Below, piece by piece: positions 9,674 through 59,689 of a stretch of DNA of 64,000 nucleotides. The translations under genes were made by a program, and so were the position numbers. This DNA comes from Bugula neritina (lineage: Eukaryota; Animalia; Bryozoa). Within the stretch, counting starts at the first letter, position 1. Every line of letters starts with the position of its first letter. The notes beneath the pieces are model-generated. The model was given only the letters and a program-made list of their open reading frames with translations. It did no database searches and was not told the DNA's origin. The stretch spans positions 4,144,722 through 4,208,721 of the forward strand of contig OZ037766.1 of NCBI GenBank assembly GCA_964035545.1, read 5' to 3'.

Positions 9674-12600
9674 TCAAGCCATGCGCTTGAGTTCAGGTAC
9701 ACTGGGGAAGTACCAGTAGGTGCCTTTGACACAAGAGGTCAAGGTCATAATCAGATCACTATGACCATCCCCTCCAGCACCAACCATCCTGTCGAGCATG
9801 AACTCGAAATTCTCGGGGCTTGCAGCATATCCAATGAAGAAGAGGCCAGAGTCGCCGCTGACGGTGCCCCAAGGTTGTGACTGGCGGACTATCTCAAAAG
9901 GCTTGTTCTGCTGCCAGCCATTGCCTGTAAAATAGTTGTATACTTGCAATGTTCGAAGAAAAGTATTTGTGCAAAGTAAAACAGCAATAACATGCTTTTC
10001 TAAACTGGGATAGCAGTTACTGTACTCGTGAAAATGTCTTAATATTTTATAACAGCTGTCTGCAAATCTCAAACTGTTCAAAAAATTAAACCTGCGCACC
10101 AGTGTATAATATTGACATTTTCATAATCCCCTTGTTGAACTAAACAGATAACGGTTTGTAGTACATAACAGAATGCTGCTTAACTTCTGTATTATGGGCA
10201 AGGAAAGATTGAATAACTTGTGCTGTTTGCTCATTGGAGAAAAAGGTCAAATCAAACTTGCAAATATTATAATGCTCAACTAGTGATTTTAGCTCAAGGA
10301 ATAATTTACGTGATGTTAGGGAGTTGTCTCTCAGGAAGCTATGAGTAGATAACTGAAACAGAATAGTTACCTCCAACCATTCGAGCCACATGGGATTGTA
10401 TTGGCTTCCTGCTCAGTTCGATACTGTCAGCTTTATTTCGGCCAACTGCTGCTTCAAGAGTCTTTGCTAAAACGAATTTTCATCGCATAGTAATGAAAGA
10501 AAATCAAGCAAAAAATGCACAAGTACATTGAAAAATTCTAGCCTTGCATGCTCTAATGCGAAAATCTGAAACCAAAATAAGAATATAGAATCTATTCTTT
10601 TAGTAAATTTACTAAATGACGGCGGCTACTTAAACCAGCATTTGTCCCAATACAATTAACTTACTGGGTGCATTTGCTATATATTTATGGTTGTGGATCC
10701 ACTTTTGAGTGATAACATAACTGCCTCCAGTGCTGGGTTCAACAGCTACGTTCTCCCGCCATTCTTCATCTGCAGGATTCTCAGTACCTGGAAGACAGTA
10801 TTTAATATGAAGAGGTCTCTCTCTATAATGTATTACTAAATATCAACAGTACAAACAGATCCTATGGATCTAAATTGTAGGAATATATAATATAACATAG
10901 AATAGGTATTCAAGTGATCATGAGAGTAACATGGTAACCTTGACACTTTCATGCCTTTCTATAATTTTAGAAGCTTCGTATGACTAACAGTGACTGCACA
11001 TTTCATAAGAAGCAAAAGCAATGACATTGGAAGTAACATTGCATTAACACATCAAATATTCCAGCCAGACACTAGCGCAAAGTTGACAGACCATCAAAAC
11101 TGCATGGTCATGATTAATTACCATAATGTCCACAGTGTTCACAACAGTAATCGAACAACCTAGCCAGTGATTGTCAACAATTATTACCTCATTACATGAA
11201 AACCCACCATCAATAAATCCAGATAAATCTCTGCCATTCTGATATACCCAGCCATATATGTCTTCAAACGACTCAACGCTACCCACAGGCAACTGCGAGA
11301 TTATACGCTGTGCCAACTCAAACAGCTTACTTCTGTTGTTACTTTTTGCATGGATGAATATATCTCCACCTAAGAAAAGGCAATACCAGCATGAAATCTT
11401 GTGAACATGCAGTTGGGGCACTACAAAAAAATAGGATGTTAATGCACAGGCAGTACAAATCATGCGTGACGGAGAGGCTAGAAGTAATTTCAGCCAAACA
11501 AAAAATTAGTTTGATTGGCTGACAATGAGTTGATAGCAAGTAAGCAGGGAATAGGTCACTGAGGGAACACTTAATATGAACACAGAAGATAATAGAGCAC
11601 ACATTGTTCAAATTGTTTAAATGATACTGGACGATTCGGCCCACAATCAAGTACCGCTATGAAGGAGGTGGTAAAATATGAGTGAGCTAAAGAGCAAAAA
11701 CCTGCAAAAGATGTCACATCATGCTGAAAATGACAAAATAAATATGGCTATGACAATATGGATGCAAGACCTGAACAGTGTACCAATGAACTAAATAGAG
11801 GTTTACGGATGCACTATAGTTTCTAAAGTTCTTTTATATTCAAAATAAAAAACAAGTAAGTGTACAATCATCTATATTATCATTAGAGCAAGGACAAGGT
11901 TGCAACCTATATAAGGCACAGTTGCAAAGGTGACACTTTATCATATGGAAAGTTAAATCACATTAGACAAGGTAATTCATCAGATGCACAAATTCTGTGT
12001 TACAACTAACCAGTACTTGGAAGATCTCCATGGTCTCCCTTTCTGTGTGGATAAGTATAGTTCTTCTCCGTCTTTTTACCTGTGACCTAAAGACAAGAGA
12101 TGAACTCAATTTTTACAACAGTTGGTCAATACAAAACTGAAAACTTTGTAAGAGACTTTTCATAGTTTAGAATTTACCAAGTAAAAACCAACTTGCAATT
12201 TCAGTAGAGAGGCTCAACAAAGACTTTTATCTAACGTTACCTGGCTGAAGAAGTTGGTGCCGAATCCTACACCAGCCCAGACTTCGTCTTCCTCGTCTAT
12301 CTGGTCTGGTGGGCAGACGGTGTCTACATGTGCTTGCAGGTTGGCAACGACCTTGGCACATTTCTTCTTGTCGGCGGTGGGAGTTAAATGAATCCAGAGG
12401 TATAGAGCTTGCTCTTTTGTGCCGGAGACAACCTAACAATATAAGAATCGCAGATAGCAGAGTGTTGCTATGCAGTGAGTGAAAGTAGTTAGGATTTGAA
12501 TCTCAATCGAAGGCTTACACTATTTTGATATCGCTTTTCTGCAGCCGAAACTTTAGGAGTTGAGATGGTGTTGGAAAGAAGATCTTGCAGAGTCTGAGAC

Positions 12601-50332: not shown

Positions 50333-50866
50333 TATTCCATGTGCAGAATGATTGAAGTGTATGATAAGTTTTAGTCACTTATCATTTAGAAATTTTTTTA
50401 CAGGTTAGTTTCGCTGTTGAAGATTATTATATTTAGTTTGGGGCACTTACCTACGCATCTGATTATGGACTGACTTACTCACTTGATCATTATTGCGTGG
50501 TGATAGCAATACTGAAGTTGGAAGAAAAGTCTATGCCTTAGCAGCTCAGCCCTTGCCCCTTAGGCTTAGGCTTAACTTCAAGTTTAAAGTTTAATTACTA
50601 CTAGCACTAGTTGTACAAGTAGACAGTGTTAGTAATCTTTCTCAATCATAAAATTCTTTCCAATACAAAATGTTGTGATCATGTTGTCATAGCTTTCAAA
50701 CCAAGAATATGTAAAAATTGTAGATTTTACTGTATTACTATTAGTAAGGATAATGATTATCAGATTAATAGTAATACAAACAGCTTAAATTTAAATTATC
50801 AATAGTACTAGTAGTATTTCAGTTTGTATTTTTCTAATTGCTAACGAATTGTTCTCAAAGTGATAT

Positions 50867-51215
50867 TGTGATAAACTTGTGGGTTGAATGTAACTTAGTG
50901 CAGAACAAGATAGGTTGAAGTAGTAGAGTTCCAAATGTTTATTATAGTATAAAAATAATGTCAACTTGTCTAGGCGAGCTCCAGTAGTAGACTGGCTTAA
51001 CACCGTAACTCGCCTGCTTTTATATACAGCGAACAAAAGAACATAAAACAAAGAATCTTTTGTGTGTGTGGCCCGAAGTTCGGTAGCTCCGAAATTCGGC
51101 AGGCCCGAAGATCGGGGGAACCGATCTTCGGTCAAGCCGAAACTCGGAACTCCGAATTTCGGACCCCAATTAACATTATTGAACAAAAGAACAAACCAAG
51201 GCATAATCTATCACA
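50867..51215 (-). repeat. 3' LTR
   Basis: Direct repeat of 58310-58658; minus-strand TATATAAAA at 51018-51026 and AATAAA at 50938-50943. Confidence 0.97.
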
Positions 51216-51248
51216 CACACCCCCTATCGGAAAGCATGCTTTCCGATA
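51216..51248 (-). other. Polypurine tract with an overlapping perfect 24-bp palindrome
   Basis: Minus strand GATAGGGGGTGTG directly before the 3' LTR; TATCGGAAAGCATGCTTTCCGATA at 51225-51248. Confidence 0.75.
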
Positions 51249-51424: not shown

Positions 51425-54400
51425 TCACTCCCTCCATGTCCCATCGTCGTTGTCGGTCTGACGTCGTTCCAGCCGGATCAGTCGTCGTCGCAATTGTGTC
51501 AGATCTTCCTCACACCGTGCCACGCGGCGCCGTAAGTGGCGCACCTCCTCTTCTAGTTGCGGTCGGGAGCGGAGTGTGTTGCGCTCCGGGTGTTGTCTGT
51601 GCTCTGGGTGGTGTCTGCTTGCCGCCGAGGAGCGGGGGTCCAGGTCCGATGTACCGGGTCTGGCACCATCCCCGACCCTTGTCAGCATGACCCGAAGAGG
51701 CTGGGTGGCTGCTGGTTGGAGGGCGGCGGCGGGTTCTCCGTCTTCTTCTTGAATTGCTCTGCACGCCGGAAACCCTTGGCCGAGGGTGGCACGCTTGTGG
51801 GGGTCCGCGACGTGCGGCAGGATGAGGTCCCGGAACTCCGGAAATGTGGCCTGATCCACGGTGAACACGTGACCTGGGTGGCAGCGCGAGATGCGCTGGT
51901 GGCGCAGCACATAATCCCGCTGGTAGGAGTATTCGCCGCAAGGGCAGAATACGTTGATGAAATGTTGTGGGGCGTGAACACGCAACCGCCGGGAGGAGGA
52001 GAATTTCCTCCGACATTGCCGGCAGATGCGGTTGCCCGCTGCCCCGCATGCTTCACTAATCTTCTGATTAGTGTCGCGAGAGACCCAGGACTGGCGGGCG
52101 ACCAGTGCCTGGGGTAGAGCCAAGGTGGGGGTGTCACCGTCTTCAGCTCGAGTAGAGGAGGGCACACCGCATAGTATTCCCTGTTCCTCCCCGGCGGCTA
52201 ATTGTAGCTCAACTGGGTTGGCGACAGGGTCACTATTCATGGTGGATAGCACCTCAGTCCGGTCTGTGGCGACCCGCGGGCTGCAAGGAGCCGTCACGGG
52301 GGCTGGTGGAGGGGGGGAGTCGACTCGACTGACCTCCACCTCATCACACTCCATTGCAGTGTCTACAATAGACAGCAGAGGCCGAGTAAGGCCGGTCTCG
52401 CCGTCGCCGAAATTCGGCATCGCCTTATAGGGTACTTTGTGGGTGGTAGGGAGCCGAGGTGAGTCATGGAGAGTGACTGACCCTATGTCCTGGTCTAATA
52501 AAAACTCATTTAGAGAGTCTTCTCCAAAACTCACATCGACTTCCTCCGTTAATAAATTAGATTCTAACAAATCTAAACTAGCCCAATTAATTACAGTTGA
52601 GTCAGACTCCGGTACGGGAGGCTCTGACTCTAATGAAATACCTGTGTTTGTAGTGTTGTTACCGGGAAGAGTAATACCCATATCCAATTCGTGATTAATT
52701 CGATTACAAGTTTCAGCTTTAAAATTGCGTGTTACTAGTGGGTTAGTAGTAGTGCAAATGGCCGAGCCTCGTGTTTCAATATTTTTACCTGCTACGCGAT
52801 CGTGGGGAATTCCCATCGAGTTTTGAAGGGACAACTCAGACAATCGCGTGCCCTCCGAATTTCGGTTTGCAACTGTTCCTTTTTGTAGTGATTCTCCAGG
52901 AGGTTGGAAGAATTTACTAACTAAGGAGGAGTAATGGCCCTGGACAGATGGATTCCCACTTGGGGGGGGCAACCCTAGGTGTCCTATGTGATAGTCTGCC
53001 AGATATCTGGGTGGTTTCCTCGCTCGCTGGCTCCTTTCCAGCGGTGTGGGTGCTGGTGGTGCCAGTTGCTCCTCAGTTGCCACCGTAGGGGGGTCCCCGC
53101 CTTCACCCGTAATACGGGTGGGGGTGTCCTCCCCCCAGAGGGGTGGTGGCTCTGGGGCGTGTTGCTGCTGCTGCTCCTGCCTCTGTTGTTGTTCCAACTG
53201 TTCTCGTAGGGCAGCCTGCTCCTGCTCTGCCTCCCTTCGGATGACAATTTCCACCTCCCGGGGCCGGGTGGCTCTCCCCCGCTGGTTAGGCTGGCGGTTG
53301 GGCTCCAGGAGGGGTGGAGCCTGACCCACCGCGTCTGGGCTGGCATGGTATGGTTTCAGGCGCTGTTCGCTCTGGACTGAGACCTGTCCAGAGCGCTCCA
53401 CACGGTATGTGTGGTTGGCCAGCACCTCCACCACGCAGTAGGGACCCACGAACTTGGGCTGAAGTTTAGCCGACTGTCCGCGTCGCCTACGATAGCTCAC
53501 CATCCAGACCCAGTCTCCCACCTGATACAATGGGGGCTCTTCTGAGTCCTCTGTGCGGATCTGCCACTGCTGGGCCCGCAGTGCATCATGGGCTTTACCC
53601 ATGATCTCTGTCAGTCTTTCGACGTACTCATGTACCGGCGATTCGGGGGCGGGAACGTGGTATGTCAGGTGTTCCGGAACCCGCGTTTCCCGGCCTAGCA
53701 TCAGGAAGTTTGGGGTCTCCTGTGTGGTGGAGTGTGGTGTGCTGCGGTAAGCCCGCATGATTTGTGGCAGCACCACGTCCCATTCTTCCTGACCTCGACC
53801 AAGGAGCAGGCTCCTGAGGGCGTCACCCAACATCCTGTTGTTCCGCTCGACGACTCCGTTCCCTTGTGGGTGATATGGGGTGGTCCGACTCTGGTTCACC
53901 CCCCATATCCGGCAGAGGTCTCCCATGAGCTGGGACTGGAACTGGGCGCCCTGGTCCGTATGTATCTGCTCGGGCAAACCGAGGTAACAGAACACATGTT
54001 GGTCCAGGGTCCGGGCCACCGTGGGGGCAGTTGCGTCTGGGATAGCCAGAGCATCCGCCCACCGGGTAAAGTGGTCCGTGAGCACCAGTATCCAGGTGTT
54101 CCCTCTGGCGGATAACGGCATAGGCCCGACAAGGTCTACCGCCACTACTTGCCACGGTCGACCAGCGTACAGCCGGCGTCGACCAGTGGTTTCCGTGGGG
54201 CGGCCATGCTTGCTAGCTTGGCAGACCTCGCATTGCCGTACCCGCAGTCGTACGTCCCGAGTCATTCCGGGCCAATACCAACGCAGCCGCAGACACCTGA
54301 TGACCCGACTGACTCCAGAATGAGCCTGCTTATGGGTGTCCCAGATCAGTTCCCGTCGGAGGGCGCGTGGACAGACGACGCGGTCCCTCTCCTGCTGACG

Positions 54401-57382
54401 GTTGTCTGCTGCTAACGTTATCATCAGGAGGCCATCAGGACTGACCTTGAGGGCATCCCAGCGACGACAGAGGAGTTGGAACTCAACGTCTCCCTGCCGC
54501 TGCTGTTCCTCGCTAGGTCGTCGGCCCTCCTTCTTGGCCCGGAAAATGTCCGCTACCGGGCCGGGTAGCGTCTCCTGGAGTCGGCACAGCTCCTTGACAT
54601 TCTGGTACAGAGTGGGGTTGGCGTGAAGCGCCTGGACGTCGTCTGAGTGGGTTTCGGTCCGAAGATGGCCGTGCTCCCACCGATAGACGGCGCCCTCCCC
54701 TAACTCTGTTTCCACGTCAAGGCGAGCGGGTCCCCCGTCCCGTTTTTCAATGTGCAGGCATTGCTTACAGTCCTCTACCGGCCGGCGGCTCATGCCGTCG
54801 GCGTTTCCGTGCTTCCGGCCAGCACGGTGTTCTATCCGGTAAGAGAACTCGGCAAGAATCTCTAGCCAACGAGCTACCTGGCTCGAGGGCTCCGCACGTT
54901 TACACAGCCATATCAGTGATGCATGGTCTGTTCGCAAACGGAACGTTCTCCCATACAGATATGGCCGAAAGTGTTTGACCGCCTTGACTACTGCTAGGAG
55001 TTCCTTCCTAGTGGTGCAGTAGTTCTTCTCGGCGGCCGCGAGAGTCTTGCTGTAGTAAGCCACGACCACCTCACTTCCACCCTGGACTTGAGACAGGACA
55101 GCTCCCACGCTGTGGTCACTGGCGTCGGTGTCCAGGATGTACTCCTTGGCTGGATCAGGATACGCCAGAATTGGCGCCTCCATTAGCCGTTGCTTGAGGT
55201 GGTCGAATGCCTGCTGCTCCTCCTGCGTCCACTGCCACCGGACCCCTTTTGCGGTCAGCCGATTTAACGGCTGAGCCACTCCTGCGAAGCCAGGTATGTA
55301 CTGCCGGTAGTACCCTACTAGGCCCAAGAATGCGCGCAACTCAGGGAGGTCACGGGGGACAGTCCACTGCTTCACAGCCTGTACCTTCTCTGGGTCGGTA
55401 GCGACCCCATCACGGCCCACCACATGGCCCAGGTACGTGACTTCCGGCTGCAAGAGTGCACACTTGGAGGGCTTCAGCTTGAGTCCAGCTGCCCGGAGGC
55501 GGTCAAAGACCTCCCGCAGACGACTGACATGAGTCGAAAAGTCTGGCGAGATGACAATGACGTCGTCCAGATAGATGAGGAGGGTCTTCCAGTGTAATCC
55601 ACTGAGGACCTGCTCCATGAGCCGTTGGAAAGTTGCCGGGGCGGACGTTAGTCCAAATGGCAGTACTTTCCACTTCCAGAGCCCGTCGCGAGTAATGAAT
55701 GCTGCTTTGTCCTGGGCATCAGGACTGAGAGGCACTTGCCAGTACCCGCTAAGCAGATCCAAAGTACTGAAGTACTTGCTACCCGCGAGGGCATCCAGAG
55801 ACTCATCTATCCGTGGGAGAGGGTAGGCGTCTTGGATGGTAACGCTGTTGAGTCTGCGGTAGTCCACACAGAACCTCCAGCTACCATCTTTCTTCTTGAC
55901 CAGGACTACTGGAGAGCTCCACGCACCGTGGGCAGGCTCAATCAGATCCCGGTCGAGAAGATCCTGTACCTGTCGGCTCACCTCCTTCTCCTTCTCCGGG
56001 CCTAGACGCCGGGTAGGCTGCCTGATGGGAGTGGTGCCGGCTGCCAGGGGTATCTCGTGGGAGATGACCTTGGTCAGCCCCATGTCTCTATCTCCACGAC
56101 TGAAGACATCACTGTACTCCGCAAGTAGTTGAGCCAGTACTTGGCGTTCAGTACTACTTGTACAGTTTCCACACGCCCCATCATACAGGTCAGCCATATG
56201 CTCCGGGACTGCTCCTCGTCTGGTGTGAGGGGGGTTCCCCTGGGTGTCGGCCACTGTCTCCAGTGCCGGACCCACATCCGCTTCCTGAATGGAGTGGTAC
56301 TTCCCCACCAGCGCTCCAGCCGATAATCGGACAGGTTCCGTGAAGGGGTTGATGCACTGCACGAGGAGCTCCTGCCGACAATCTAGCCGATTCAGGCTGT
56401 TTGCTAGTCGGATCGCTCCGTGCGTTCCCTCAACCACCCCCAGGCCGGCGATCCCCTTGCAGTTGACTCTGCAGCGAAGAGTCGCCTGGGATCTTCCCGG
56501 AACCGTGCAGTCCCGCACTACCTGGACTCCGCCCACCAAGGGCCTTCCGAACTTGTCGACGCAGACAAGCTCCTTCCCAGCCATCACCACCACTGACTTC
56601 TGGAAATCCATGTGACACTGGTGTTTCTCCAGAAACGGCATTCCCAGGATGGCGTCCTCCTTCAGCTGGCTGACTATGAACGTCTCGTGAATTGCTTGAT
56701 CACGGACGCGTCCAGGTAGTGAAATGACGCCGTAGAAAGGAATGCATGATCCGTCCGCCAACGTACCATGCGCACCTTCATACGGCTCGAGGCTCGCCCG
56801 CTCTCGTGCACCAAGAGTGTCAAAGAGACGCCTACTCAGCAGGTTGGTAGTGCACCCAGTATCCAGTAGGAATGTGGCAGCTTTACCCGAAATCTTTCCG
56901 GGCAGAAAGTAGCTGCTTCCATACGGCTGGGCGCTCCTGGAGCGGTCAGTCTCTGGGGGAGACACAACTTGGGTCCGCACAGCGGGCCTCCTCTTTGTCT
57001 TAGAGACAACGGGGGTTTTCTGAGGTCGGGAGGGTAGCTTGGGGTACTCTTGCGAGTAAGCTGAATCCTCCTCCACAACCTCCTCGGGCAACCCCGCGAA
57101 CCGGTTCTGGAGTGGCCAGGCCGGAGGATCGGGTAGACCTTGCGGTCTCCGAGATCTCCGAGGTGCCTGCCATCCTGCTTCTTCTAGCTGCATCCGGGTC
57201 TCGAGTGACACGGCCGGAGGATCGGGTAGACCTTGCGGTCTCCGAGGTCTCCGTGGCCTCTGCCACTCGGTATCGGCAGACCCTGTGGAGGTCTCTTCTT
57301 CTCCTCTTCGAGTCCTATCCCGGATGGGATTGGCGTGAGGCCCACGGTTGGCGGAAGTTACCGTGAGCCTTGGGTGTTTAAA
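51425..57382 (-). CDS. pol: Gypsy pol (protease, RT, RNase H, integrase) with an about 520-aa C-terminal extension (acidic region, C2H2 zinc fingers, coiled coil); entered by -1 frameshift
   Basis: LLDTGC (protease); LPFGL and YLDD (RT); DTDASD, NYCTTRKELLA, TDH (RNase H); H-x3-H...CEVC, VDLVG, HTDQG, NGVVER, GPY (integrase). The frame is open from the slippery site at 57382 to the stop at 51425. Confidence 0.96.
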   Translation of the reverse strand, partial: FKHPRLTVTSANRGPHANPIRDRTRRGEEETSTGSADTEWQRPRRPRRPQGLPDPPAVSLETRMQLEEAGWQAPRRSRRPQGLPDPPAWPLQNRFAGLPEEVVEEDSAYSQEYPKLPSRPQKTPVVSKTKRRPAVRTQVVSPPETDRSRSAQPYGSSYFLPGKISGKAATFLLDTGCTTNLLSRRLFDTLGARERASLEPYEGAHGTLADGSCIPFYGVISLPGRVRDQAIHETFIVSQLKEDAILGMPFLEKHQCHMDFQKSVVVMAGKELVCVDKFGRPLVGGVQVVRDCTVPGRSQATLRCRVNCKGIAGLGVVEGTHGAIRLANSLNRLDCRQELLVQCINPFTEPVRLSAGALVGKYHSIQEADVGPALETVADTQGNPPHTRRGAVPEHMADLYDGACGNCTSSTERQVLAQLLAEYSDVFSRGDRDMGLTKVISHEIPLAAGTTPIRQPTRRLGPEKEKEVSRQVQDLLDRDLIEPAHGAWSSPVVLVKKKDGSWRFCVDYRRLNSVTIQDAYPLPRIDESLDALAGSKYFSTLDLLSGYWQVPLSPDAQDKAAFITRDGLWKWKVLPFGLTSAPATFQRLMEQVLSGLHWKTLLIYLDDVIVISPDFSTHVSRLREVFDRLRAAGLKLKPSKCALLQPEVTYLGHVVGRDGVATDPEKVQAVKQWTVPRDLPELRAFLGLVGYYRQYIPGFAGVAQPLNRLTAKGVRWQWTQEEQQAFDHLKQRLMEAPILAYPDPAKEYILDTDASDHSVGAVLSQVQGGSEVVVAYYSKTLAAAEKNYCTTRKELLAVVKAVKHFRPYLYGRTFRLRTDHASLIWLCKRAEPSSQVARWLEILAEFSYRIEHRAGRKHGNADGMSRRPVEDCKQCLHIEKRDGGPARLDVETELGEGAVYRWEHGHLRTETHSDDVQALHANPTLYQNVKELCRLQETLPGPVADIFRAKKEGRRPSEEQQRQGDVEFQLLCRRWDALKVSPDGLLMITLAADNRQQERDRVVCPRALRRELIWDTHKQAHSGVSRVIRCLRLRWYWPGMTRDVRLRVRQCEVCQASKHGRPTETTGRRRLYAGRPWQVVAVDLVGPMPLSARGNTWILVLTDHFTRWADALAIPDATAPTVARTLDQHVFCYLGLPEQIHTDQGAQFQSQLMGDLCRIWGVNQSRTTPYHPQGNGVVERNNRMLGDALRSLLLGRGQEEWDVVLPQIMRAYRSTPHSTTQETPNFLMLGRETRVPEHLTYHVPAPESPVHEYVERLTEIMGKAHDALRAQQWQIRTEDSEEPPLYQVGDWVWMVSYRRRRGQSAKLQPKFVGPYCVVEVLANHTYRVERSGQVSVQSEQRLKPYHASPDAVGQAPPLLEPNRQPNQRGRATRPREVEIVIRREAEQEQAALREQLEQQQRQEQQQQHAPEPPPLWGEDTPTRITGEGGDPPTVATEEQLAPPAPTPLERSQRARKPPRYLADYHIGHLGLPPPSGNPSVQGHYSSLVSKFFQPPGESLQKGTVANRNSEGTRLSELSLQNSMGIPHDRVAGKNIETRGSAICTTTNPLVTRNFKAETCNRINHELDMGITLPGNNTTNTGISLESEPPVPESDSTVINWASLDLLESNLLTEEVDVSFGEDSLNEFLLDQDIGSVTLHDSPRLPTTHKVPYKAMPNFGDGETGLTRPLLSIVDTAMECDEVEVSRVDSPPPPAPVTAPCSPRVATDRTEVLSTMNSDPVANPVELQLAAGEEQGILCGVPSSTRAEDGDTPTLALPQALVARQSWVSRDTNQKISEACGAAGNRICRQCRRKFSSSRRLRVHAPQHFINVFCPCGEYSYQRDYVLRHQRISRCHPGHVFTVDQATFPEFRDLILPHVADPHKRATLGQGFPACRAIQEEDGEPAAALQPAATQPLRVMLTRVGDGARPGTSDLDPRSSAASRHHPEHRQHPERNTLRSRPQLEEEVRHLRRRVARCEEDLTQLRRRLIRLERRQTDNDDGTWRE
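57339..57382 (-). promoter_or_regulatory. Programmed -1 ribosomal frameshift signal (U UUA AAC plus 10-bp stem-loop)
   Basis: Gag frame ccT TTA AAC (57376-57382), 6-nt spacer, then stem GGCUCACGGU/ACCGUGGGCC (57339-57369) containing the gag UAA; pol is in the -1 frame and open from here. Confidence 0.88.
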
Positions 57383-58263
57383 GGCCCTTGGCCTCTAGGG
57401 CAGTGCCTCCTCACATGCCCTTGCACCCCGCACCCCCAACAGGTTAGTAGAGATGGGCGGACAGGGTTGTCCCGTGAACGGGGAGCCCGCCTATCCGCCT
57501 GTTCGCTCTGCAACTTCGTCACTGTAGCCTGCAGGCCTTTCATCATGTCCATTAACATGGTGAGCTGCGTCTGCTCGAGTGATTTAGTTGCTGCGGCCGC
57601 TACTTGGGGTTTAGCAGGCAGGGCGGTCTCCTCATCGACCACCTGGCGGGCGGCGAATCTTGGTCCTTGAAGCTCTTCTACCTGGAAATAGGCTTTACCC
57701 GTTTCCAGAGCTTCGTCCAGGCTGCCCACCTTGCCAGCCATCCAATAGCGTTGGAGGTCAGGATGATTTATACTCCGGAAAAACGCGTTGTACACCAGGC
57801 GCTGTCTTTCCGTTCCGGTAGCCTGGCTGAAAGCAGCCTGGGCCAAGCGTTCCACCACGTTGGCGTGGTCCTCCAATGATGTCCTCCTGTCCCTTCTCAG
57901 GGCCTGTAGGCGGTCAGACGCCTCCTCTGACGTCATGCCAAACCTGGCCCTTAGGGCACGTAAGATGTGTGCTTCATCGGGCCCCAGAGCGAAACTCTTG
58001 GCCCGGCCTGTCAAACAGGCCCGGAGTTGGAGGACGCGCACCGGCACTGGCCATTCAGCGATGGTGGCCACGTCCTGGAACTCCCGGATGAATTGCTCCA
58101 CATCCCCATCACCTCCAAAAGTTGGGGGACTGAGGCGGTACCTGTCACCAGGTGGCGCCTGCCCTGTCCCCTGCAACTTTCGGAGGGCTGTCACCAAAGC
58201 CTCCACAGTGAGGGTTGGTGTCGCGGCTGCTCCAGGGGTTGCCTCCTCACCCCCTGGAGCCAT
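57358..58263 (-). CDS. gag: Gypsy gag (capsid-like region plus CCHC zinc knuckle), 301 aa
   Basis: PPTFGGDGDVEQFIREF...W...LTGRA...LRARFG capsid-like signature; CWGCGVQGHVRRHC knuckle. Confidence 0.94.
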   Translation of the reverse strand: MAPGGEEATPGAAATPTLTVEALVTALRKLQGTGQAPPGDRYRLSPPTFGGDGDVEQFIREFQDVATIAEWPVPVRVLQLRACLTGRAKSFALGPDEAHILRALRARFGMTSEEASDRLQALRRDRRTSLEDHANVVERLAQAAFSQATGTERQRLVYNAFFRSINHPDLQRYWMAGKVGSLDEALETGKAYFQVEELQGPRFAARQVVDEETALPAKPQVAAAATKSLEQTQLTMLMDMMKGLQATVTKLQSEQADRRAPRSRDNPVRPSLLTCWGCGVQGHVRRHCPRGQGPLNTQGSR

Positions 58264-58288: not shown

Positions 58289-58308
58289 GAATCCCACCGC
58301 TGCCACCA
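58289..58308 (-). other. Primer binding site complementary to the 3' end of tRNA-Leu
   Basis: Minus strand TGGTGGCAGCGGTGGGATTC, 1 nt after the 5' LTR; complementary to ...GAATCCCACCGCTGCCACCA, the 3' end of metazoan tRNA-Leu(AAG/TAG) as recalled. Confidence 0.9.
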
Positions 58309-58309
58309 A

Positions 58310-58658
58310 TGTGATAAACTTGTGGGTTGAATGTAACTTAGTGCAGAACAAGATAGGTTGAAGTAGTAGAGTTCCAAATGTTTATTATAGTATAAAAATA
58401 ATGTCAACTTGTCTAGGCGAGCTCCAGTAGTAGACTGGCTTAACACCGTAACTCGCCTGCTTTTATATACAGCGAACAAAAGAACATAAAACAAAGAATC
58501 TTTTGTGTGTGTGGCCCGAAGTTCGGTAGCTCCGAAATTCGGCAGGCCCGAAGATCGGGGGAACCGATCTTCGGTCAAGCCGAAACTCGGAACTCCGAAT
58601 TTCGGACCCCAATTAACATTATTGAACAAAAGAACAAACCAAGGCATAATCTATCACA
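58310..58658 (-). repeat. 5' LTR
   Basis: Identical to 50867-51215; adjoins the PBS. Confidence 0.97.
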
Positions 58659-59689
58659 ATATATTCAGTATAGATCTAGATGTTGAAAGTATTAAAAATT
58701 CTATTGAATACCAATATAAAGAATTAAACCCAATCAACATGATAATCACTAACAGAGTCAATGAAATTCTCATTTTTAGTCTAAGAATAAAAATAAACTT
58801 TGGTATGGGAGTAAATCTCAATGACATTTAGTCACAGTGAGTAAATTACTGTGTTTGATTTCAATAAAATATATGATTTGATTAATAATTTAATTAAATG
58901 AATGAGATAATCACCATAGTTAGTATTCATTAAACAACTCATTTAAAGTAAGTGACTGTTAAATCACTTATAAAATAGTAGCATGCTGTATCATGTTAGT
59001 GTATGGAGATATTTTTATTTTCTATTGTTTCTTATAATTTTTTGCAATAACTTTCGTAAATATGCTAGCTGCATTCTAGATAACAGTACTACAGGGGGAG
59101 GGGGAGGGAGGGGGCAAAGAACTTTTAAGAAATTGACATATTATGCTTCAGTTTAATTTTTTAACCAGCATTAGAATGATAAATCTAGAAGTGAATTAGC
59201 TAAATCTGTGTTTTTTACTATAAAACTTATATAAAGTTAGTGTTGTTTTAGCTCACTGCATATTGATTTTAATATGTTGCAATGAAACATATTGTTTACT
59301 AATTTTATTGAATAAAAGACTTCTTTGACTAAGAAATGCTGCAGCATTTTTTATTTAATATACTTTCAAGTAAATGGGAAGTATTTACTAATACATGATA
59401 AAAATTATGTGCAAATATTTGTCAATAAAGGGAAGAAATAAATTGCTTTAAAGTTTTTAATGCTAAATACAAATGGTATTTTGCTTACAACAGATGAAAT
59501 TTCTTTTGGATTCTGCATAAACCAACTTTAGTAATTTATGTACTCATAGCTCTGAACAACTTATACTTTTATAAAACAGTTGATTCTGGTGTTGTTGGGC
59601 CTCAAGTTTGCGTTTGCAATTTGTAAATTACTCTTTAAATAGATTGATGATCAGGTATTGGAAGTTAATGGTTTAACGCTGTGAGGGTA

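Follow-up and report, generated by a model that had tools for sequence, protein, structure and literature searches.

In the 64,000-nucleotide stretch of Bugula neritina DNA analysed here (the window), a complete Ty3/Gypsy (Metaviridae) LTR retrotransposon carries an uncatalogued two-finger module at the end of its pol frame. The module is paired with a palindrome array that is confined to the element, and this pairing is what is new here. Our best explanation, to which we give a probability of roughly 0.4, is that the module is a self-encoded, LTR-binding activator or anti-silencer, which would follow the logic of Tas or VANC with an unrelated sequence. Complex retroviruses (Tas) and the plant VANDAL DNA transposons (VANC) are characterised by sequence-specific transcriptional regulators that they encode themselves, and in the papers searched none was found reported for an animal Gypsy element. 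If the explanation is true, simple LTR elements have evolved complex-retrovirus-style autoregulation independently, within the pol polyprotein. With a candidate protein and a candidate 11-bp site both identified, counter-silencing by animal retrotransposons becomes testable. Mechanism aside, the domain represents an unnamed family with a confident predicted structure, for which a profile search gives 320 or more clusters at 50% identity.

The element and its extended pol frame

The element is whole and young. Its two LTRs (5' LTR, 58310..58658; 3' LTR, 50867..51215) are 349 bp each, 100% identical, with TG...CA ends, and are flanked by a 4-bp target duplication, ATAT (58659-58662 and 50863-50866). 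Apart from this duplication and the CCGA-N3-TCGG palindromes, all features of the element given here are on the reverse strand. A primer-binding-site-like sequence, which we take to be of the tRNA-Leu type, directly follows the 5' LTR (58290..58308), and a perfect 24-bp palindrome (51248-51225), found by reading the sequence, enters the purine-rich tract ahead of the 3' LTR (51216..51248). The gag ORF (57358..58263) encodes 301 amino acids and has at its end a CCHC knuckle, which was likewise recognised by reading (Pfam zf-CCHC, E 0.41 only). A candidate -1 frameshift signal (57338..57382) is composed of the slippery heptamer TTTAAAC (57382-57376) and an 11-bp stem that starts 5 nt past it (fold z -3.0). 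The pol frame (51425..57394) has 1989 codons and comprises, in this order, protease (56902-56627), RT (55900-55421), RNase H (55231-54845) and integrase (54370-53387), the last with the Gypsy-type H2C2, rve and Tf2-like SH3 matches in Pfam. The LTRs, target duplication, primer-binding site, polypurine tract and pol order are those of a Ty3/Gypsy element. In Pfam, no chromodomain was found in the element at E up to 1, which sets it apart from the chromoviruses. No env match was found in Pfam either, and the highest 19-residue hydropathy is 0.57, which sets the element apart from errantiviruses and other env-bearing Gypsy elements and agrees with the first-pass annotation, where no transmembrane segment had been seen. 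Env and chromodomain identities for the extension are ruled out by the same searches. The available part of PMC8556966 mentions no ORFs, zinc fingers or PBS and is of no aid in placing the element's clade. The site of this one insertion is gene-rich, with about 3 kb to the first FAK-like exon and to DUF4550 exons.

An RxxRxxxPPxY-type motif, LERSQRARKPPRYL, is located at 53000..53041, where the first-pass annotation had placed it. We take it to be an integrase-end motif, a name that comes from that annotation and from general knowledge and not from a library model. Beyond it the frame stays open for 524 codons (51425..52999, with the stop at 51427-51425), close to the 520 or so that had been claimed. 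By base composition alone, the probability of 524 open codons by chance is about 3e-9, and that of the AT-rich first 180 codons staying open is about 2.7e-5, while the other frames there are crowded with stops; a chance open frame is therefore rejected. The AT-rich stretch (52535..52894), open in frame, has a GC content of 0.38-0.45 as compared with about 0.6 in pol, and can be regarded as a candidate internal promoter. Met codons within the extension include 52816, which comes first, and 52420.

The two-finger domain, its flanks and its relatives

The core of the extension is a folded domain of about 120 amino acids with a net charge of +11 (51755..52108). It consists of a Trp-led helix, a C2H2 finger (52024-51962), a C2HC finger (51946-51881), a strand and two helices, and both fingers form the core of this larger fold according to the alignment and an AlphaFold model (pLDDT 92, pTM 0.78). 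An earlier model, built on 16 sequences, had a pLDDT of 59 and was left out of the fold searches. The zinc ligands of finger 1 are C326, C329, H342 and H346, found in 104, 109, 108 and 105 of 109 domains, respectively; those of finger 2 include C352 (109), C354 (108) and H367 (103). The fourth ligand of finger 2 is a Cys in 69 of 108 rows and the subsequent His is present in just 23, so this finger is C2HC (C-x1-C-x12-H-x5-C). The canonical C2H2 finger of the first-pass annotation is present, and so is the second finger that it had described, which is not C2H2. The helix face of finger 1 is basic, with R/K at +2 in 89/108 rows and R at +3 in 77/108, and that of finger 2 carries Arg-Asp (84/108 and 78/108). 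We consider it quite probable that the domain binds DNA.

With one canonical finger and a hydrophobic linker of 5 residues, the domain differs from classical tandem C2H2 proteins (Kaiso, SALL4, ZBTB20 and CTCF), which repeat C-x2-C-x12-H-x3-H with TGEKP-type linkers; the CxC...H...C second finger and the wrapping helices and strand set it further apart. No family in Pfam or NCBIfam covers the domain, the finger matches of the window in Pfam fall under the cut-off, and the ESM Atlas returned mostly unnamed clusters plus weak C2H2 leads. Finger 1 matches such classical fingers in sequence, the best being SALL3 (E 3e-5). Foldseek gave no match for the domain in the PDB or BFVD at E 0.001, and VIA-align found none among 48,161 chains at Z >=5, which does not establish a new fold. 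In VIA-align, 50-57 residues of the core could be superposed at 2.3-2.7 Å on pairs of tandem fingers bound to DNA, with a Z of only 3.1-3.8 (best match: Z 3.8, rmsd 2.7, 57 aligned).

Three further segments flank the domain. An acidic-hydrophobic patch (52484..52630), activation-domain-like on composition alone, has 15 D/E and no K/R in 60 residues and corresponds to the acidic stretch noticed earlier. Such windows occur upstream of the domain in 16/30 relatives, compared with 4.1 in shuffles, and downstream in 2/49. The terminal heptad-repeat helix (51464..51559), a predicted coiled coil that had also been noticed, has counterparts in 35/65 long tails against 0.4 in shuffles. Between the domain and this helix, an LxVxLxR motif (51674..51697) is the single match in the 1989-residue frame to the published HP1a-binding consensus, which was searched as the 14-position HAC pattern printed in the methods of its paper. 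It lies in a disordered, conserved stretch, as the HAC consensus has it. Downstream of the domain the consensus is found in 23/87 tails against 6.0 in shuffles, and upstream in 5/71 against 5.9. In seven more distant relatives the motif is conserved at 50-75%, as compared with 6-46% in its flanks; its strict form is mostly on the window's side of the domain tree and is absent from many distant tails. It has 2 Arg, where the rule in Drosophila, which may differ elsewhere, asks for 3-6 basic residues between positions -4 and +4. It presumably also resembles a SUMO-interacting motif. HP1 partners carry motifs of this kind in disordered regions (PMC12526061). A DSP-type motif was dropped, being barely above shuffles in the tails (12/83; shuffle mean 4.9, maximum 11). 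We had taken that motif to recall the Ty5 targeting domain.

The Cys and His residues, whose loss in relatives the first-pass annotation had set against its reading, are near-invariant in relatives as low as about 25% identity, and neutral decay of the fingers is thereby ruled out. Most relatives are 23-39% identical to the window. The patch, HP1-type motif, fingers and terminal coil all recur among them, the patch, fingers and coil doing so together. The majority of the relatives are short proteins beginning inside the extension, and the module is fused in frame to a complete integrase in this copy only: no full pol-plus-module protein was found among 619 and 7987 candidates, with lengths 385-583 covered by one search only. 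Four relatives have at least 350 residues upstream of the domain. Two of these have the integrase-end motif (P0123 and P0154, in frame with the module and 31-33% identical to the window's domain) and one an in-frame protease, and they lie across a deep split in the domain tree from the window. In P0157 and P0171, protease and module share a frame without RT or integrase, as would suit a product that the protease releases and that acts in trans. The domain is also present in annotated bryozoan genes, where no pol context is evident. Scans of viral and metagenome sequences with the module or the integrase gave no confirmed relative. The tree is a quick version of 108 rows and 108 columns with many forks open, from which P0165 was excluded as a probable false member.

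The palindromes and a proposed self-encoded regulator

The sequence CCGA-N3-TCGG has 15 matches in the window, where 0.09 are expected, and all 15 are inside the element; there are none in the 56 kb of host DNA in the window. Half-site spacings from 0 to 10 other than N3 are absent anywhere in the window. Each LTR has six palindromes, the extension two and pol one, so that a short motif is densely arrayed in, and confined to, its own element, as with VANC. The array of the 5' LTR (58516..58605) occupies LTR positions 54-143 with spacings of 15, 16, 16, 16 and 16, and ends 46 bp upstream of a TATA-like box at LTR position 190; in the 3' LTR, array and box are at 51073-51162 and 51026-51017. The three isolated palindromes (0.14 expected) are one in pol after the protease (56320..56330), one at the start of the AT-rich stretch, 39 nt upstream of the Met codon at 52816 (52855..52865), and one just past the Met codon at 52420 (52407..52417). 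For the last, the peptide pattern is compatible with a site in 9/16 aligned relatives and fails in 7/16. A close relative, P0025, is known from protein only. Its out-of-frame tail reads into the LTR and, in a hand reading, is compatible with six sites at a 16-bp period, and most of its spacer-coded residues differ from the window's. Of the 23 and 4 loci that came out of scans for palindrome arrays elsewhere, not one carries pol or the domain.

Six evenly spaced copies sit in the element's promoter, so the module is likely to bind the palindrome (a prediction). We give a little better than even odds, overall, to CCGA-N3-TCGG as the target, with one protomer per half-site and the two joined via the coil. 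The module would arise as the C-terminal part of Gag-Pol, following a -1 frameshift, and then be freed by the element's protease; an internal promoter within the AT-rich stretch, which two sites flank, may perhaps supply more of it. As a predicted dimer, it would bind the palindromes arrayed in its own LTR, the acidic patch would recruit co-activators, and LxVxLxR would engage HP1, making the element readable in silenced chromatin. That patch and motif add up to a positive net effect is, overall, tentative. The Tas-like reading of the first-pass annotation thus keeps its set of patch, fingers and coil and gains a six-site array before a TATA box and two sites in the extension; the conserved HP1-type motif, which it had overlooked, may just as well point to repression or to tethering on chromatin. 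Several points speak against a self-encoded activator. Protein and palindrome are tied to each other indirectly, by their place in the same element; the array hairpin is more stable than the half-sites alone explain; motifs of the HP1 type are typically those of silencing complexes; and if Gag-Pol were its only source, the protein would be in short supply and packaged, a poor fit for a transcription factor. Host factors, moreover, commonly bind LTR arrays.

The module could instead stay on integrase and tether the integration complex to chromatin via HP1 or finger-DNA binding, as chromodomains tether chromovirus integration. It occupies the place typical of integrase targeting domains, P0123 and P0154 keep the integrase-end motif in frame with it, and the HP1 consensus is enriched downstream of the domain and better kept than its flanks. 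This alternative, which the first-pass annotation had already offered, is weakened by the survival of the module with a protease and without integrase in P0157/P0171; it leaves the patch and the LTR array unexplained, no relative with integrase core and module was found among the candidates searched, and the sole insertion (n=1) is in the gene-rich DNA described above. We consider it rather unlikely. The cis and trans evidence, with the conserved HP1-type motif added, would also suit a module that binds the same palindromes and represses via HP1, like a KRAB-ZFP and KAP1 in one chain, for copy-number control. The recurrence of the acidic patch upstream in relatives, the many distant tails that lack the strict motif and the recent movement of this copy, whose LTRs are identical, make such a repressor quite unlikely.

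The array may alternatively act as an RNA or ssDNA structure, a long U3 hairpin, or hold host-factor sites, with the fingers directed at RNA, a host protein or host promoters. It folds into one long hairpin at -68.9 kcal/mol (z -9.2), better than 500/500 controls with half-sites fixed (mean -53.3), the likeness to DNA-binding fingers is structurally weak, and the bryozoan genes with the domain lack evident pol context. A hairpin has no need of the isolated single sites, however, and 144/720 permutations of the N3 centres fold as well, so their order is not optimised for folding; a constant gap of 3 bp and a period of 16 bp are in keeping with an operator for a protein. We hold this explanation to be unlikely. 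Finally, the fusion to pol may be incidental, the module being in most family members an accessory gene apart, transcribed from a promoter of its own, and this copy simply lacking the stop, in keeping with the short relatives that start within the extension, the failure to find full pol-plus-module proteins, the internal Met codons and the two palindromes that flank the AT-rich stretch. An AT-rich linker kept open against the odds and the integrase-end motif or protease in long-upstream relatives across the deep tree split argue the other way, and fragmented contigs and decayed copies would yield short products anyway; we find an incidental fusion highly improbable. It touches expression only and is compatible with a regulator function.

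Extending the self-encoded regulator to a whole animal Gypsy lineage, with a private regulator-operator circuit at the polyprotein end, is doubtful. In that version a protease-released, dimeric zinc-finger protein would find CpG-containing palindromes in the LTR and the internal promoter, and its HP1-binding motif and acidic domain would open the element up again where chromatin is silenced. Fingers and motif would form a separate pair in every subfamily, and the domain would have undergone domestication in bryozoan hosts.

Comparison with known systems

Foamy virus Tas/Bel1 is an acidic-class activator whose coding region lies past the core genes and ahead of the 3' LTR (PMC517496, PMC7828637, PMC4929722), and it binds elements in both the LTR and an internal promoter (PMC517496). 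Similarly, the window has an LTR array and two internal candidate sites. Tas, however, has an ORF to itself in an enveloped retrovirus and is the product of the internal promoter, whereas the window's module shares the pol frame, combines zinc fingers with a coil, and is found in an element with no env; no Tas homology was found in Pfam, PDB and BFVD searches. VANC has as its target a short motif that is arrayed in the element encoding it (PMC5735166), to which it binds, and is predicted to dimerise via a coiled coil (PMC5735166; bioRxiv 10.1101/2024.04.02.587720). The window likewise has a short motif densely arrayed in its own element, to which binding of the module is predicted. VANC, as described in those sources, belongs to Arabidopsis VANDAL DNA transposons, has a MAIL1-like domain, recognises a non-palindromic motif in one orientation and is coded by a separate gene; in the window, an animal retrotransposon has zinc fingers and CpG-containing palindromes.

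Gypsy-like elements of spiralian animals with accessory ORFs include the bdelloid ORF3 types (PMC5408684) and planarian Burro (PMC6431247). Like the element in the window they have captured non-env domains, some of them inside the polyprotein. Their cargo, as far as the available text of both papers goes, comprises env, GDSL esterase, DEDDy nuclease, coiled-coil or membrane ORFs, RING, BIR, MATH and ankyrin; neither zinc nor C2H2 appears as a word in the bdelloid paper (PMC5408684), and for Burro that text names no module of tandem fingers (PMC6431247). Domains added C-terminally to a Gypsy-type integrase, as in the window, are also known from chromoviruses, with a chromodomain at the pol end (PMC12440569), and from Ginger1 transposases, with OTU, Ulp1 or PHD domains (PMC2836005). 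The window has none of the chromo, PHD, OTU or Ulp1 domains; unlike these systems, it has a 524-residue add-on with an apparent cis-target, and an add-on of this type persists without integrase in a relative.

The retrotransposon and the open end of its pol frame

The extended pol frame is part of a minus-strand LTR retrotransposon that is complete (58658-50867). Its two LTRs (58658-58310 and 51215-50867, minus strand) are 349 bp each and mutually identical, start with TG and end with CA, and ATAT is found on both flanks of the element, outside the LTRs. After a gag of 301 aa comes pol, whose frame of 1989 codons has protease, RT, RNase H and integrase arranged in the Gypsy order. The LTR structure and the order of the domains mark this as a Gypsy element; a chromovirus identity was rejected, and env is absent from it. 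The gag-pol overlap holds the slippery heptamer TTTAAAC, followed 5 nt later by a stem (z -3.0), and pol is therefore likely translated via a -1 frameshift. The Arg/Pro-rich stretch between the frameshift site and the protease carries a direct repeat (57101-57265) of 72 bp at 93-bp spacing, 86% identical. The surrounding DNA is that of an animal genome rich in AT and depleted of CpG (observed/expected ratio of CpG 0.42-0.46). A FAK-like gene has its first exon about 3 kb from the element, and DUF4550 exons lie at a similar distance. An intron-split Dyp-type peroxidase gene lies in the host DNA at 9674-11505 (Pfam Dyp_perox_C, E 1.7e-11).

The first-pass annotation had described pol as continuing past integrase into an acidic stretch, zinc fingers and terminal heptads, with no membrane segment; each of these features is present, no membrane segment is found, and the frame stays open for 524 codons after the integrase-end motif (53041-53000). 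From composition, the chance of such a frame is about 3e-9, and that of the AT-rich first 180 codons staying open is 2.7e-5. The zinc-finger module that closes this Gypsy pol is real, selected and uncatalogued, and a matching candidate operator array is located in the LTR.

The two-finger domain and its flanking segments

The last 219 aa matched 28 relatives among 641 candidates. A profile made from 16 of those sequences was run against 1.84 billion and found 320 representatives at E 0.001; a threshold of 1e-10 leaves 133 of them, and one of 1e-30 leaves 41. Of the 320, 150 were listed. A domain match was obtained in 149 of 163 proteins, and 109 domains are near full length, including one, P0165, that is probably a false member. 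Of the 109, 73 have 23-39% identity to the window. The zinc ligands are kept (C326 in 104, C329 in 109, H342 in 108, H346 in 105, C352 in 109, C354 in 108 and H367 in 103), as are W305, T310, V381 and D382 (94-99 each). Finger 2 has Cys as its fourth ligand in 69 of 108 rows and is therefore a CxC-type C2HC finger. The AlphaFold model of the domain, predicted from 81 sequences, is confident (pLDDT 92, pTM 0.78). Structural likeness is limited to the two-finger core and is weak: this core resembles tandem C2H2 fingers bound to DNA, with Kaiso as the best match (Z 3.8, rmsd 2.7, 57 residues). Pfam and NCBIfam list no named family for the domain, which is uncatalogued and contains both fingers. 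Of 25 members looked up, those with a name are all uncharacterised proteins from two bryozoans, Watersipora subatra and Bugula neritina.

The domain is also present in annotated bryozoan genes, namely P0037/P0173 (XP_067940964.1, XP_067940963.1), P0100 (XP_067944745.1) and P0174 (KAF6040922.1), which could be regarded as domestication candidates. Two domain copies and a coil are found in P0037/P0173 and in P0052.

In the relatives, the layout of acidic patch, domain and coil is conserved as a whole. By a crude score, 35 of the 65 long tails carry terminal heptads (0.4 in shuffles), and acidic-hydrophobic windows are found in 16 of 30 upstream segments (4.1 in shuffles) and 2 of 49 downstream ones. 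Between domain and coil, and missed by the first-pass annotation, lies the segment LRVMLTR; nothing else in the 1989 residues fits the HP1a-binding consensus of PMC12526061. The consensus is found in 23 of 87 downstream tails, which are not independent, vs 6.0 in shuffles, and the motif is better kept than its flanking residues. It is absent from many distant tails, and the copy in the window has fewer basic residues than the Drosophila examples. Two short motifs also recur, M[DE]x[DE] upstream of the domain (about 52354; 16/83 relatives vs 1.5 in shuffles) and [FYM]xIP[KRL] downstream (6/99 vs 0.14).

The palindromes of the element

The palindrome CCGA-N3-TCGG, the candidate target of the module, has 15 matches in the window against 0.09 expected, all inside the element and none in host DNA; half-site spacings other than 3, from 0 to 10, do not occur in the window. 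Each LTR has an array of six at a spacing of 15-16 bp, the last site lying 46 bp before a TATA-like box. The three internal sites (0.14 expected) consist of one in pol and two in the extension, at 52855 and 52407, which flank the AT-rich stretch and are each near a Met codon. Contig scans recovered no genomic loci of the relatives; at the protein level, site 52407 is compatible with 9 of 16 aligned relatives and site 52855 with 1 of 1. The frameshifted tail of one relative, P0025, reads into its own LTR, with residues compatible with six sites at a 16-bp period and spacer-coded residues mostly unlike those of the window; as it was read by hand from the protein, this is evidence of compatibility only.

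A perfect 24-bp palindrome at 51225-51248, with the half-sites in reversed order (TCGG...CCGA), adjoins a purine tract. The CCGA-N3-TCGG palindrome is also arrayed at a 15-16-bp period on 27 unrelated viral or metagenome contigs with neither pol nor zinc module; some of these arrays resemble iterons in phage replication genes, and others 5-codon protein repeats.

Possible roles of the module

A spaced palindrome is what a basic two-finger domain ending in a coil would be expected to read, with each half-site taking one protomer, and the 16-bp period would place adjacent dimers on alternate helix faces. With the acidic patch added, the module may activate or de-silence the LTR of the element that encodes it, either freed from Gag-Pol by the protease or produced from an internal promoter. 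We give this reading, with binding to the candidate palindromes, a probability of about 0.4. The module would then act like the foamy-virus activator Tas, which binds both LTR and internal promoter (excerpts of PMC517496), or like VANC, the anti-silencing protein of Arabidopsis VANDAL transposons, which binds a motif arrayed within its own element (excerpts of PMC5735166); the searches run on the module gave no homology to either. The known invertebrate Gypsy cargo includes no comparable module in the excerpts of PMC5408684, PMC6431247, PMC2836005, PMC9289625 and PMC12440569, and no earlier description was found among the papers searched.

The LTR array could instead be a hairpin or a set of host-factor sites, the fingers having another target, which we consider unlikely. 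The array folds as a single long hairpin (z -9.2), which argues against a pure operator reading, and its fold beats 500 of 500 controls with fixed half-sites; however, 144 of the 720 arrangements of the central triplets fold equally well. Self-repression via HP1 is placed slightly below this.

Tethering of integrase by the module ranks next after the activator reading, as an unlikely alternative, and an incidental fusion to pol seems highly improbable. No protein with both integrase core and module was found among the candidate proteins searched, and the fusion to a whole integrase is thus shown only in the copy of the window. The majority of module matches are short gene calls on short contigs, and only four relatives have at least 350 residues upstream of the domain. 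The integrase-end motif is in frame with the module in two of them, P0123 and P0154 (2/83 upstream segments; 0 in shuffles), a third, P0157, has a protease 38% identical to that of the window, and P0131 has neither. A deep split separates P0123, P0154 and P0157 from the window in a quick, poorly resolved tree. P0157 and its cluster-mate P0171 lack RT, RNase H and integrase: the module can persist behind a protease without integrase. In these products of 1145-1208 aa, Gypsy protease and zinc module share one frame, and they possibly represent a non-autonomous element that retains protease and regulator alone.
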